Assembly (NCBI GenBank): GCA_037444405.1
Contig: JBBIML010000010.1
Location: forward strand, 112,930-176,929
From: Armatimonadota bacterium
Lineage (GTDB): Bacteria; Armatimonadota; Fimbriimonadia; Fimbriimonadales; GBS-DC
Length of the DNA stretch: 64,000 nt
Direction of reading: 5' to 3'
Shown here: positions 20,549 to 52,050 of the stretch, in pieces
Position numbering within the stretch: position 1 is the first letter of the stretch
How the letters are laid out: every line of letters starts with the position of its first letter
Position numbers and translations under genes: made by a program
Notes under the pieces: model-generated
What the model was told of the DNA's origin: nothing
The model's input: the letters and a program-made list of their open reading frames with translations, nothing else
Databases searched by the model: none

Positions 20549-22207
20549 ATGCGTCCCTTAGCGCGGCGTGTGCGGAGCCTGCAGCGCTACCGTCAGGTGG
20601 TGGGCGTGCTGGCACGGCACGGGTTCGGCTCCGCGCTGGAGTATCTGAGCGTGCATCGGCGGCTCGCGCTCCCTCGCGCCGAACTCCAGCCCGAAATAGA
20701 GCCGCTCCACTCCCCTGCCGAGCATCTGCGCCTCGCCATCGAAGAGCTGGGTCCCACCTTCGTCAAGCTGGGGCAGATGCTCTCCACGCGCTCCGACTTG
20801 CTGCCAGAGCCGTTTATTGAGGAGCTGCGCAAACTACAGGACAGCGTGCCGCCCACGCCTTGGTCCGAGATTCGCGCCGTGATGGAGCAGGAGCTGGGGT
20901 GCCCGCCCGAAGAGGTGTTCCAGAACCTGGACCCGAACCCCATCGGCTCCGCCTCGCTCTCGCAGGTGCATGCCGCGACGCTACCCGATGGCACTGCGGT
21001 CGCCATCAAGGTGCAGCGCCCCGGCATCCGCGACATCGTGGAGACCGACCTAGAGATTCTGCACGATCTGGCGGCGCTGGCGCAGCGCACACCGATGGGC
21101 GAACTGTACGATGCGGAAGCCGTCGCTGAAGATATCGCTTTTATGCTGCTGAACGAACTCGATTTTCGGCGGGAGGGGCGCAACGCCGAGCAGTTCCGTC
21201 AGAACTTCGCCGACGAGCCGAAAGTGCATATCCCGCGCATCTACTGGGACTACACCACGCCGCGCATGCTGGTGATGGAGCGGGTTCACGGCATCAAGGT
21301 GGATGAGGTGGAGGCGTTGCGCGCGGCGGGGCACGACACGCGCCAGATCGCGCTCGACGCCTCGCGCCTCATCATCAAAGAGGTGCTGGAAGATGGCTTC
21401 TTCCACGCGGATCCCCACCCGGGCAACTATCTGGTGGAGGCGGATGGGCGCATCGGCGTGCTGGATTTCGGCATGGTGGGCACGCTCAGCGAGGACGACC
21501 GCATCAATCTCACCCGCCTCTATGTGGCGGTGATTCGGCAGGACACCCACTCGATATTGAATGTGTTTGCGCGGATGGGTGCGCTCTCCTCGCGCACCGA
21601 TCGCCCGCGCCTGATCCGCGCCACCGAACGACTGATCGGCAAATATCGCGGGCGCACGCTCAGGGAAAGTTCCTTCGCCGAGTTCTGGAGCGATCTAACC
21701 GAGCTGATGCGCCAGCACCATGTGCGATTGCCGACCAACCTGTGGCTGGTGGGCAAGACGCTGGCGATGCTGGAAGGCATCGGGCGCCAGCTGGACCCCG
21801 ATTATGACCTGTTTGCGGTCTCGGAGCCGTTCGTGCGGCAGCTGGCGAAGCAGGTGTGGCGTCCGCACCTGTCCACGCGCGACCTGCTGGAGCAGGTGGA
21901 CACCTGGCGCTATCTGATGCGCGAGTTGCCCGTGCTGGTGATGCAGTGGTTGCAGGGCGTGGAGCGGGGCAAGGTGCCAGTGGAGGCGCAGATTGGCGCG
22001 TCGCCCGAAACGCTCGATCGGCTCGACGCCATGATCACACGCCTGTCGCTCAGTATTCTGGTGGCGGCGTTTATTGTGGGGCTGGCGCTGCTGTTGCCCG
22101 CCACCCGCGAAATCCCGTTCGCGCCCGCGCTCACCTTCCTCGGCTTTCTGGGGGCGACCCTGCTCGGCGTGTGGCTGCTCATCTCCATCCTGCGGCGCCG
22201 CCACTGA
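20549..22207 (+). CDS. ABC1/AarF/UbiB family atypical kinase
   Basis: LGPTFVKLGQ, SASLSQVH, VAIKVQRP, FFHADPHPGN, LDFGMVG; C-terminal TM helices. Confidence 0.93.
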   Translation: MRPLARRVRSLQRYRQVVGVLARHGFGSALEYLSVHRRLALPRAELQPEIEPLHSPAEHLRLAIEELGPTFVKLGQMLSTRSDLLPEPFIEELRKLQDSVPPTPWSEIRAVMEQELGCPPEEVFQNLDPNPIGSASLSQVHAATLPDGTAVAIKVQRPGIRDIVETDLEILHDLAALAQRTPMGELYDAEAVAEDIAFMLLNELDFRREGRNAEQFRQNFADEPKVHIPRIYWDYTTPRMLVMERVHGIKVDEVEALRAAGHDTRQIALDASRLIIKEVLEDGFFHADPHPGNYLVEADGRIGVLDFGMVGTLSEDDRINLTRLYVAVIRQDTHSILNVFARMGALSSRTDRPRLIRATERLIGKYRGRTLRESSFAEFWSDLTELMRQHHVRLPTNLWLVGKTLAMLEGIGRQLDPDYDLFAVSEPFVRQLAKQVWRPHLSTRDLLEQVDTWRYLMRELPVLVMQWLQGVERGKVPVEAQIGASPETLDRLDAMITRLSLSILVAAFIVGLALLLPATREIPFAPALTFLGFLGATLLGVWLLISILRRRH

Positions 22208-22308
22208 AACGGCAGGAATCGCCCGACGCGCTGGCGAACTTTAACCATCGGGAGGCGACCCGATGAACGAGTCGCCCTTCCGAAACCCGATTGGCGGTGA
22301 ATCCGTAG

Positions 22309-22314
22309 TATAAT
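22309..22314 (+). promoter_or_regulatory. -10 element (TATAAT) upstream of the structured RNA and prkA
   Basis: Perfect TATAAT in an AT-rich patch, about 6 nt before the first paired stem. Confidence 0.65.
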
Positions 22315-22319
22315 ATAGT

Positions 22320-22678
22320 AGCGGGCAGGTGAGAAGGCATCGCAACAGGGGAGGATGCCTTCGGATACATTGACAATCGGGTGTGGCAACGAAGCGGTCT
22401 CCATCGGCAGCACATAGGCGCTCCGAAAAGCGTTGAAGTTTCGAGCGTGCCTGTGGAATATTTCCCACATGACAGCGCTGGAACCCCATCCAGAGGCAGT
22501 TCCGTCGAACCGATAATGGGAGAGGGTTCTGTTGACAGGGCTGGAGCCAATCGCCCTTCGGGGATGGGGGAGCGAGTGGGTGCTATCCTTACCTGGAGAC
22601 CGCGACGGGCGCCCACCCTGCCTGCTCGCAGTGAACGAGTGGCGGACGGTGAACCCTGTTTCACCCGACGCCACACAC
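22320..22678 (+). ncRNA. Candidate large structured RNA or 5' leader of prkA, family unrecognised
   Basis: Multiple nested complementary pairs (see findings); no convincing ORF. Confidence 0.6.
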
Positions 22679-22694
22679 AAGGGGGTTATGAACA

Positions 22695-24623
22695 ATGAGC
22701 GCAGCGGACTTCCTGCGCCAGATCGAGGAACAGCGACGGCTGGAAAAACAGATCAGCTGGGAAGGCACTTTCCGGGACTATCTGGAGATTGTGCAGAAGA
22801 ACCCGAAAGTCGCCAATCTGGCGCACGCGCGTATCTACGACATGATTATCAGCGCTGGCGTCGAAGAGCGTGGTGAAGGACAACCCAAAGAGTACAAATT
22901 CTTCACCAGCGAGCTGTTCGGACTTGACCGCACGCTCCAGCAACTGGTAGAGGAATATTTCGCGCCTGCGGCGCGGCGACTCGATGTGCGCAAGCGCATC
23001 CTGCTGCTGGTGGGTCCCGTCGGCGGCGGCAAATCGACGCTGGTGACGATGCTCAAGCGCGGGCTGGAACGCTATTCGCGCACCGACGAGGGCGCCGTGT
23101 ACGCCATCAAAGACTGCCCCATGCACGAAGAGCCGCTCCACCTCGTGCCCGAAGATCTGCGCGCCGACTTCAAGCGCCAGTTCGGCGTGCATATCGAAGG
23201 CGACCTCTGCCCCGTGTGCCAGTGGAAACTCAAACACGAATGGGGCGAGAACATTCAGGATGTGCCCGTCGTGCGCATCCGCTTCTCCGAGCGCGAGCGC
23301 GTGGGCATCGGCACCTTCAAGCCCTCTGACCCCAAGTCGCAGGATGTATCGGAACTCACTGGCAGTGTGAACCTGAGCCTGCTCACCCAGATCGGCGTCG
23401 AATCGGACCCGCGCGTCTATAACTTCGATGGCGAACTGAACAAGGCGAACCGCGGCATCATGGAGTTCATCGAAATGCTCAAAGCGGACAAACGGTTCCT
23501 GTACGAACTCAACACCGTCGCCGGCGAGCAGATGATCAAAATCGGACGGTTCGCCATGATCTACACCGATGTGGTCGTCGTCGCGCACACCAACGAGTAT
23601 GAATACAACGCCTACTTCTCCAACAAGGAGAACGAGGCGATGATCGACCGCATGTTCGTGATCAAAGTGCCTTACAACCTGCAGGTCTCCCAGGAGGTTC
23701 GCATCTACGAGAAGCTCATCCGGCAGTCCCAGTTCAGCGACGAGACCCAGGACCTGTCGAAGGTGCACATCGCGCCGCATTCGCTGCGTGTGGCGGCGAT
23801 GTTCGCGGTGTTGAGCCGCCTGAAACCGCCCAAAAAGAGCGGGCTGTCGCTGATGACCAAGATGAAACTCTACGATGGCGAGCGCCAGGTCGGCGATTGG
23901 GACCAGCGCCATGTGAAGGAGCTGCGCGAGGAGTACCCTGACGAGGGCATGACGGGCGTCTCGCCCCGATTCATCATCAATCGCCTCTCCGCCGCGATGG
24001 TCAAAGGGCGCTCCTGCATCACGCCCATCGATATCCTGCGCTCCATCCGCGACGGATTGACCGAGTACACCAGCAACGAGGAAGAACGCAAGAAGCTGCT
24101 CACCTTCCTGGACGATGTGCGCAAGGAGTACGACGAGCAGATCAAGAAGGAGGTGCAGCGCTTCTTCGTCTACAGCTATGAGGAAGCCGCGCACACCCTG
24201 CTGGAGAACTATCTCGACAATGTGGACGCCTACTGCAACAAGACCAAAGTGCGCGACCCCATCACGGGCGAGGAGATGGACCCCGACGAGAAGCTGATGC
24301 GCAGCATCGAGGAGCAGATCGGGGTGTCGGAGAACGCCAAGCGGGAGTTCCGCGAGGGTATTATGCGCTCTGTGGCGTCGCTGGCGCGGCGCGGGCTGCG
24401 CTTTGAGATTGGCAGCGACGAACGCCTGCGCGAAGCCATCGAACGCAAGCTGTTCGCCGACCTCAAAGATGTGGTCAAAATCACTACCTCGGCCCGCACG
24501 CCCGACCCCGACCAGCTGCGCAAAATCAACGAGGTGGTCGACCGCATGGTCTCGCAGGGCGGCTACTGTCACATCTGCGCGAACGAAGCGCTGCGCTATG
24601 TGGGCACCCTGCTGAACCGCTGA
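22695..24623 (+). CDS. prkA: PrkA/YeaG family AAA+ serine protein kinase
   Basis: GPVGGGKS, CPMHEEPL, DGELNKANRGIMEFIEMLK, AHTNE. Confidence 0.95.
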   Translation: MSAADFLRQIEEQRRLEKQISWEGTFRDYLEIVQKNPKVANLAHARIYDMIISAGVEERGEGQPKEYKFFTSELFGLDRTLQQLVEEYFAPAARRLDVRKRILLLVGPVGGGKSTLVTMLKRGLERYSRTDEGAVYAIKDCPMHEEPLHLVPEDLRADFKRQFGVHIEGDLCPVCQWKLKHEWGENIQDVPVVRIRFSERERVGIGTFKPSDPKSQDVSELTGSVNLSLLTQIGVESDPRVYNFDGELNKANRGIMEFIEMLKADKRFLYELNTVAGEQMIKIGRFAMIYTDVVVVAHTNEYEYNAYFSNKENEAMIDRMFVIKVPYNLQVSQEVRIYEKLIRQSQFSDETQDLSKVHIAPHSLRVAAMFAVLSRLKPPKKSGLSLMTKMKLYDGERQVGDWDQRHVKELREEYPDEGMTGVSPRFIINRLSAAMVKGRSCITPIDILRSIRDGLTEYTSNEEERKKLLTFLDDVRKEYDEQIKKEVQRFFVYSYEEAAHTLLENYLDNVDAYCNKTKVRDPITGEEMDPDEKLMRSIEEQIGVSENAKREFREGIMRSVASLARRGLRFEIGSDERLREAIERKLFADLKDVVKITTSARTPDPDQLRKINEVVDRMVSQGGYCHICANEALRYVGTLLNR

Positions 24624-24646: not shown

Positions 24647-24736
24647 CCCCCTCACCCGTACCCTCTCCCCCGCTTGCGGGGGAGAGGGATTTGGATTCTG
24701 CCCTCACCCCTCTGGGGAGAGGGTCAGGGTGAGGGG
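24647..24736. repeat. Inverted pair of family A REP-like palindromes
   Basis: cccctcacccgtaccctctcccccgcttgcgggggagaggg ... ggggagagggtcagggtgagggg. Confidence 0.85.
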
Positions 24737-51921: not shown

Positions 51922-51968
51922 CGTTTCTGCCTCCTTCTCTTGCTGAATGGTTTCAGCAAGCCGGAGAC

Positions 51969-52050
51969 AGGCAACCCGGCTATCTGCTATTTCCAGCAGA
52001 CCCCTGGGCTTTGCGTCCCTGCATCACTGCAGGTTTGCCCTTTTCTGCCT
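51969..52050 (-). ncRNA. c-di-GMP-I (GEMM) riboswitch
   Basis: Minus strand AGGCAGAAAAGGGCAAACCTGCAGTGATGCAGGGACGCAAAGCCCAGGGGTCTGCTGGAAATAGCAGATAGCCGGGTTGCCT: GGCAAACC / GGGACGCAAAGCC / GGTCT / AGCCGGGTTGCC core, GNRA loop GUGA. Confidence 0.9.

Follow-up and report, generated by a model that had tools for sequence, protein, structure and literature searches.

The gene prkA of an Armatimonadota bacterium is preceded by a long 5' leader that is conserved throughout one bacterial family. It lies in a 64,000-nt stretch of DNA (assembly GCA_037444405.1, contig JBBIML010000010.1, forward strand, positions 112,930–176,929), here called the window, whose numbering is used for all positions. We read positions 22282–22694 as the control region of prkA, composed of a family-restricted structured leader and a tandem promoter array, and give this reading somewhat better than even chances. 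A promoter P1 would start the transcript at about 22315–22320 with one sigma factor of the extracytoplasmic function (ECF) type, shared with the genes yeaH and spoVR, and a promoter-like element P2, about 165 nt into the leader, could be a second start for the same sigma factor. The leader of the P1 transcript, ~375 nt, would fold as a closed multi-helix structure comprising a closing stem, a 5' hairpin, P3, P4, P4b, P5 and probably P6 and P7; P3, P4 and P4b would bracket the P2 region, and the Shine–Dalgarno (SD) sequence would be left single-stranded 10–70 nt past the last helix. Such a fold may govern how stable the long P1 mRNA is or how it is translated, and in this set it apart from the shorter P2 mRNA, which would lack the 5' strands of the helices; sensing of a ligand would not be needed for this role.

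The host belongs to an uncultivated, thermophilic, hot-spring family of the Fimbriimonadales (Armatimonadota), represented by metagenome-assembled genomes. PrkA was found in 23 of the 24 sampled family genomes, with amino acid identities of 83–99%, and the leaders of the family comprise 48 unique sequences of 236–424 nt that form four main sequence groups, namely g1 (the genus of the window), g3, g4 and g5. The protein itself is unusually conserved (92–99% identity in 21 of 23 matched family genomes besides that of the window), yet the leader diverges strongly among the same loci (the window and L006–L028).

We accept the predicted folded leader RNA as real, because P3, P4, the closing stem and several hairpins are found again in each genus, where their sequences differ and some of the changes are compensatory. 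The strongest argument, drawn from the aligned sequences, is that P3 and P4 keep both their place and their complementarity across genera although their sequences differ. P3 is formed by GGGUG.GGC/GCC.CACCC in g1, GGCGUUCGG/CCGAACGCC in g3, GGGUGUAUCGC/GUGAUGCACCC in g5 and GGUGUGU/ACACACC in g4; similarly, P4 is GCGGUCUCCA/UGGAGACCGC in g1 and UCGCCUCA/UGAGGCGA in g3. Compensatory changes include the P4 pair 123:343 (CG/UG/UA), the g3 P4 pair 68:245 (CG/UA) and the P5 pair 94:111 (AU/GC). An earlier note on this DNA had listed many complementary segments upstream of prkA, and a script located all of these pairings in the window where the note had put them, together with a TATAAT at 22309–14 and a CTTCGG loop near 22557. 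The closing stem (5' strand 22320–22330, partner 22617–22629) has two registers because CCTGCC is repeated, and the minimum free energy (MFE) structure picks 22321–30 paired with 22620–29.

The fold was scored on two alignments, one of the genus of the window (A2, 10 sequences of g1) and one of g3 (A6, 15 sequences, plain MAFFT). RNAalifold predicted 64 pairs on the genus alignment, and nine of these show compensatory change. The g1 structure model was built from the MFE structure of the window plus comparative helices and the g3 model was made by hand. In the g1 model 79.6% of the alignment cells were paired, against 42–51% when the 3' partners were slid by 1–3 columns, and in the g3 model 89.8% against 34–47%; the structures were derived from the same sequences, which inflates these fractions relative to the slid controls and is a point against our reading. 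In addition, 20 pairs of the g1 model were changed on both sides, compared with 6–10 after sliding, and 0 of 500 shuffles equalled its paired fraction or covariation score (the sequences are related, and these counts should therefore not be taken for probabilities). When covariation was scanned all against all in the 10 genus sequences, the noise was too high for the result to be used. Counts of G.U versus A.C pairs were set aside as evidence, since the choice of the structures biases them.

It could be argued that the whole region acts as DNA only, with two tandem ECF-type promoters and operator palindromes, and that pairing in the RNA merely follows from inverted repeats and a high G+C content and serves no purpose in the transcript. 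P1 and P2 are indeed both strongly conserved, and the GGAA-N3-TTCC element at 22453–22468 (TGGAAYAWTTCC) is conserved without covariation, so that an RNA hairpin and a DNA operator are indistinguishable there. Fold energies speak on both sides. The segment 22316–22700 (385 nt) had an MFE of −162.6 kcal/mol, compared with −142.8 ± 6.1 for 100 dinucleotide shuffles, none of which was as good (z −3.27). The reverse strand of the same segment scored better still (z −4.73), and the fold energy of the window alone therefore cannot tell the strand. Of 20 lineages, 16 had the more stable fold on the plus strand (mean difference 9.4 kcal/mol). When the 35 nt that follow ACAAYYGG were paired with the 3' region, the best long-range duplex had a mean z of −2.43 against 200 shuffles, with z below −2 in 13 of the 20 lineages. 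Besides the minus-strand value for the window, two further results weigh against the RNA fold: both strands fold equally well in g3, and the cross-genus duplex control was weak, since 12–37% of non-cognate partners paired equally well. Nevertheless, each genus keeps complementary segments of 8–12 nt that lie 150–230 nt apart and differ in sequence from those of the other genera, with some compensatory changes, and operators leave this long-range complementarity unexplained. We therefore consider a purely DNA-level role improbable. The earlier note had placed a structured RNA ahead of prkA, and this part of it stands: the element is conserved, is linked to prkA and lies on the transcribed strand, and the genera share its outer helices even where the sequences differ.

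The centre of the predicted fold, P6 and P7, is less clear. In g3, g4 and g5 the helix P6 between a C-tract and a G-tract is long and changes in a coordinated way, and on an alignment across genera (A4) fitted with R1, a covariance model of the leader core, it was 81–85% paired with seven of nine pairs changed on both sides. Against the proposed core stands the finding that in g1 the G-tract at 22562–69, scored by columns, pairs better with the TTCCC of the GGAA hairpin (TTCCC/GGGGG, 96%) than with the C-tract (65%), and this competing pairing has two pairs with coordinated change in g1 (for example 196:303, UA5/CG3). P7 is also just 53% paired in g3. Whether the CCGAU loop could pair with AAUCGG in the junction was considered too, and the idea was rejected, as the sequences on reading show uncompensated variation in the junction.

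Several features that the earlier note had emphasised turned out to be peculiar to few sequences. The final hairpin next to the SD (22639–22674) is present only in the window and in locus L007; among the 10 genus sequences, L113–L116 carry an unrelated insert at its site and L008, L009, L112 and L118 have nothing there. A kissing interaction between the loops of the first and final hairpins could be scored in just these two sequences; one of its six pairs is broken in L007, and we rejected it as a conserved feature. The same applies to the proposed switch between GTGTGGC and GCCACAC, which relies on the lineage-specific final hairpin. The suggested resemblance to the base of group II intron domain I was not borne out either: the segment concerned (GTGCTATCCTTACCTGGAGAC) is the 3' strand of P4b/P4, no group II intron model matched at E≤10, neither domain V nor domains I–IV were found, and the length of the leader varies from 236 to 424 nt.

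Conservation of the DNA upstream of the leader starts at the −35 element of P1. G[GA]AAC-N17-CGTA(G)TATAAT precedes the leader in 43 of the 48 unique sequences, and in one more with N16. ECF (group IV) promoters are described, in two published accounts, as having a −35 GGAAC with an AAC core, N16 and a −10 CGTT; the −35 of Escherichia coli sigmaE is given there as GGAACTT and the alphaproteobacterial EcfG motif as GGAAC-N16-CGTT (PMC1540707, PMC7083833). P1 has the corresponding parts, that is a GGAAC-like −35 with the AAC core, a spacer within 16–18 nt and a CGT-like −10. The promoters of this family resemble ECF promoters in their GGAAC/GAAAC −35 with AAC core, their spacer of ~17 nt, their CGT-initial −10 and the small set of stress-associated genes that they serve; the −10 variants are CGTA in P1, CGTC in P2, CGTT or GGTA at spoVR and GGTA at yeaH. 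They differ in a TATAAT-like extension after the −10 of P1, in a CCGATAAT box at varying positions and in the two copies that flank a structured leader. The genome has 22 matches to Sigma70_r4_2.

The same type of promoter was found at the partner genes of prkA. In the genome of the window these are unlinked, with prkA on contig C10, yeaH (DUF444) on C14 and spoVR on C8. Example architectures are GGAACCTGCCGACAATTATCTGCGTTAATA upstream of spoVR and GGAACTTTCGCCGATATACATGGTATCTTAA upstream of yeaH. Across the family, G[GA]AAC-N15-20-(GTAY|GTTA) is present in 23 of 26 distinct spoVR and 22 of 26 yeaH upstream regions, and a CCGA.A. box in 25 and 20 of them, respectively. The shared promoter type before the three dispersed genes suggests that they are probably co-regulated by one alternative sigma factor. 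In one genome (G008) the three genes are adjacent on one strand (C6:256–5546), and there the DNA upstream of yeaH and spoVR is without the motif. A search of the window's own genome with GRAAC-N0-6-CCGAYAAT gave 3 matches against 2 for the reversed control, thus no enrichment indicating a wider regulon.

Other arrangements of these genes were seen as well. In genome G004 yeaH and spoVR are adjacent. Upstream of spoVR in genome G007 (L205) the spacer box CTTGCCGATAATA is tandemly doubled, which would shift GGAAC 13 nt further from the −10. In two genomes spoVR (G012:C1:2937737–2940148 and G017:C66:7995–10406; L222, L223, L226 and L227) is in two pieces, residues 1–263 and 256–400, which lie ~1.2 kb apart in one open frame of 886–1020 aa; the frame suggests an in-frame insertion such as an intein.

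P2 coincides with what would otherwise be called the RNA core of the leader, its most invariant part, GGAAC-N18-CGTC.AACCGATAAT (core motif GTCKAACCGATAAT). The pattern [GA][GA]AAC-N18/19-GTCNAACC.ATAAT occurs in all 48 leaders; its spacer is fixed at 18 or 19 nt and variable in sequence, and P2 thus shows the motif with fixed spacing that marks the promoter type of the family. The CCGATAAT box reappears in the promoters of yeaH and spoVR, in spacers that are apparently untranscribed. Owing to the fixed spacing and this reuse, P2 seems to be read at the level of DNA, probably as a second promoter, as a regulator site or as both, which explains it better than an RNA pocket does. A third promoter built on the core (G/T)AAC was considered and dropped, as its spacing, on reading of the sequences, fits in g3 only.

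Some observations count against a working P2 and against two isoforms of the mRNA. The position of the CCGATAAT box relative to the −35 and −10 differs among prkA, yeaH and spoVR. The predicted P2 transcript (22515–22725) does not exceed its shuffles in stability (z −0.24) and has no clear SD trap, which leaves the supposed difference between the isoforms without computational support. Moreover, we infer both start sites and the activity of P2 from sequence. The coordinates of all features are given in Table 1.

Table 1. Features of the prkA locus in the window, and pairing of the leader helices in groups g1 (alignment A2) and g3 (alignment A6); "both" is the number of pairs changed on both sides
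Feature	Position	Strand	Sequence or description	g1	g3
ABC1-kinase gene	20549–22207		upstream of the leader		
Promoter P1	22282–22314	+	ECF-sigma type; −35 GAAAC 22282–86, 17-nt spacer, −10 CGTAGTATAAT 22304–14		
prkA 5' leader	22315–22694	+	~375 nt; presumed start a few nt past the −10		
Closing stem	22320–29 / 22617–26	+	AGCGGGCAGG / CCTGCCTGCT; 10/10 paired	76% paired, both 2; core GGCAG/CUGCC invariant	96% paired
5' hairpin	22333–41 / 22354–62	+	GAAGGCATC / GATGCCTTC; 9/9 paired	80% paired, both 2	equivalent hairpin, 98% paired, both 2
Junction motif	22373–22380	+	ACAATCGG; conserved; ACAAYYGG / AGAAYYGG in other genera		
P3	22379–22387 / 22611–22618	+	GGGTG(T)GGC / GCCCACCC	87.5% paired, both 1	99% paired
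P4	22394–403 / 22594–603	+	GCGGTCTCCA / TGGAGACCGC	94% paired, both 2	UCGCCUCA/UGAGGCGA in the same place, 80% paired, both 2
P4b	22409–13 / 22580–84	+	AGCAC / GTGCT	73% paired, both 3	
P5 hairpin	22416–22452	+	AGGCGC...GTGCCT	outer 88% paired, both 0; inner 49%, both 2	equivalent, 89% paired, both 3
GGAA hairpin	22453–22468	+	GTGGAATATTTCCCAC, conserved TGGAAYAWTTCC; hairpin or DNA palindrome		
Promoter-like element P2	22480–22517	+	GGAAC 22480–84, 18-nt spacer, CGTCGAA 22503–09, CCGATAAT box 22510–17		
P6 candidate helix	22484–91 / 22562–69	+	C-tract CCCCATCC / GGATGGGG	65% paired column-wise, both 2	91% paired
P7 hairpin	22494–22530	+	loop contains GTCGAACCGATAAT	90% paired, both 2	53% paired
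Extra hairpin of g3					96% paired
3' hairpin	22639–22674	+	lineage-specific; final hairpin of the earlier note		
SD and start codon	22679–86 and 22695–97	+	AAGGGGGT and ATG of prkA; kept in all family sequences		
prkA	22695–24623	+	642 aa; Pfam AAA_PrkA E 2e-123 and PrkA C-terminal domain E 7e-89		
Terminator-like hairpin	24661–24688	+	downstream of prkA; monocistronic unit; next gene on the opposite strand		

The earlier note had proposed an undescribed large non-coding RNA or riboswitch-like leader. The leader is undescribed, as it held, and conserved; the riboswitch part is weakened, as the invariant motifs coincide with a promoter-like element. A riboswitch or aptamer would have the invariant GGAAC...GUCKAACCGAUAAU, ACAAUYGG and UGGAAYA form a pocket in the P3/P4/P6/P7 junction, and binding there would alter access to the SD. 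The region does look the part, with a multi-helix junction, highly conserved unpaired nucleotides among variable, covarying stems, and a fixed position directly upstream of the SD. The C-tract ACCCC is complementary both to the internal G-tract and to the SD (AAGGGGGU), the G-tract of g1 has two mutually exclusive partners, as a switch would need, and other Armatimonadota carry long conserved prkA leaders, some with terminator-like hairpins. It is, however, the supposed pocket that has the form of the promoters of this very family, with a spacing fixed at 18/19 nt, and shares its CCGATAAT box with the apparently untranscribed spacers at yeaH and spoVR. The stems covary, and a promoter-like DNA element accounts for the invariant nucleotides as well as an aptamer would. 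Neither form of expression platform, a terminator or an alternating SD-sequestering helix, was found. There is no plus-strand terminator-like site in the leader; the SD (GGGGG) is 91% unpaired in the ensemble computed for the window at 37 °C; and in the 18 of 23 sequences that were computed there was no common SD partner across genera, which varies by genus, and no conserved helix sequestering the SD. The element is also confined to one gene of one bacterial family. A riboswitch is thus possible but not supported, and we regard it as unlikely. We are equally doubtful of its wider form, a new class of large cis-regulatory RNA in which the GGAAC/GUCKAACCGAUAAU/ACAAUYGG junction would bind a starvation or stress signal or a protein and toggle the C-tract between the G-tract and the SD. 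If that were true, the likeness of the core to a promoter would be a coincidence or an adaptive overlap, and in the latter case long transcripts would use the sequence as an RNA pocket while short ones would have it as their promoter.

The earlier note's view that the leader belongs to no known RNA family was confirmed, as cmscan with the 4227 models of Rfam 15 was empty at the gathering score. These models took in riboswitches, RNase P, 6S, tmRNA, OLE, GOLLD, ROOL, raiA and group II intron domains, and even at E≤10 none matched 22150–22800 on either strand. In the prkA-upstream DNA of 20 related loci tRNAs were the sole Rfam matches, and the literature searched on prkA with riboswitch, or on Armatimonadetes with structured RNA motif, held nothing relevant. 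The only Rfam match in the whole window is elsewhere, a c-di-GMP-I-GGC riboswitch (RF03167) at 51966–52048 on the minus strand, which scored 60 bits (gathering score 59, E 1.2e-11).

BLAST-level similarity to the leader is restricted to the three of three genomes of the same genus, and the alignment of prkA-upstream DNA showed the promoter and leader to be conserved across the whole family. A hidden Markov model (HMM) of the leader matched 24 of 60 prkA-upstream regions in the genome collection and 29 of 79 metagenome loci fetched; the matched genome loci all have a PrkA at least 86% identical, and no match was obtained where PrkA was at most 80% identical. All of four family genomes have a single match each to GRAAMYYC-N14-26-TCNAACCRATAAT and none of 397 other Armatimonadota genomes has one, and the reversed control had no match. 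Similarly, R1 recovered all 48 known leaders and matched none of 27 loci from other Armatimonadota at E≤1. On whole genomes it gave exactly one match in 22 of the 29 of the family, and those of the listed matches that could be checked all sit 100–250 nt upstream of prkA. Its seven misses are three genomes with divergent g1/g5 leaders, the single g2 and single g6 genomes (the g6 leader scored E 0.06), one genome in which no PrkA was found and one that is 65% complete. The leader is single-copy in its own genome, and a mobile element was ruled out by the single copy and the lack of a plasmid match. An upstream open reading frame (ORF) was also rejected, since AUG..UAA frames over the conserved motifs, on reading of the sequences, differ in frame among g1, g3 and g5, and the ORFs overlapping the region (21910–22695 and 22179–22676 on the minus strand, 22381–22698 on the plus strand) had no Pfam match.

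This distribution also bears on the idea that the element is an independent gene for a trans-acting non-coding RNA that merely lies upstream of prkA. It has a strong promoter of its own and a compact closed fold of ~300 nt, as such a gene might. On the other hand, no plus-strand terminator-like site lies between the leader and prkA, the last helix ends 10–20 nt before the SD in most genera, and the element was never found apart from prkA. We consider a separate RNA gene very improbable.

Leaders of prkA outside the family were compared as well. A second type, highly conserved and ~330 nt long, occurs in other Armatimonadota (L045–L051, L059, L064 and L138–L144) whose PrkA is ~79% identical. 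It resembles the leader described here in lying upstream of prkA with a conserved promoter of its own, and in having several hairpins and a long-range helix (GCCAGU/ACUGGC); it differs in its sigma70-like promoter TTGACA..GGTATAAT and in a GC-rich hairpin, GCGCCUCGUG..CACGAGGCGC, with a short U-run behind it ~50 nt ahead of the ATG. This type too had no Rfam match. Leaders of prkA in Chthonomonadaceae (L054–L056, L066 and L067) carry terminator-like hairpins with U-runs behind them, such as GCCCCGGCAGAGAG..CUCUGCCGGGGC + UUUUG, and the sequences hint at attenuation control of prkA in this family. Homology of our leader to either kind was rejected, with no HMM match at E≤10 and no R1 match at E≤1. 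The presence of unrelated long prkA leaders in other Armatimonadota suggests that control of prkA at the level of the leader is common in this phylum.

The mRNA of the E. coli stress regulator rpoS has a long structured 5' leader, and candidate riboswitch and leader motifs have reportedly been identified by comparative genomics. The prkA leader is like these in being cis-encoded, several hundred nucleotides long and built with long-range helices just before the SD of a stationary-phase or stress gene; it differs in matching no Rfam family, in lacking a conserved inhibitory SD hairpin and in its restriction to one family. It can be called a new family of leader RNAs in so far as neither Rfam nor the literature searched contains it. 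In kind it is a known thing, a structured 5' UTR of a stress gene joined to an ordinary kind of promoter, in one bacterial family and at one gene.

PrkA (YeaG), YeaH and SpoVR form a stress and starvation module that is widespread, and outside a few model bacteria its regulation is poorly understood. For those who search for RNA motifs the present case holds a caution, as invariant loop nucleotides can be promoter elements. In the lineage studied here prkA, yeaH and spoVR have one type of promoter in common in spite of their dispersal, and prkA alone has a long folded leader containing a second promoter-like element. The outcome is a testable regulon and a sigma-factor motif for Armatimonadota, and a candidate for promoter-dependent 5' UTR isoforms or for a new leader RNA.

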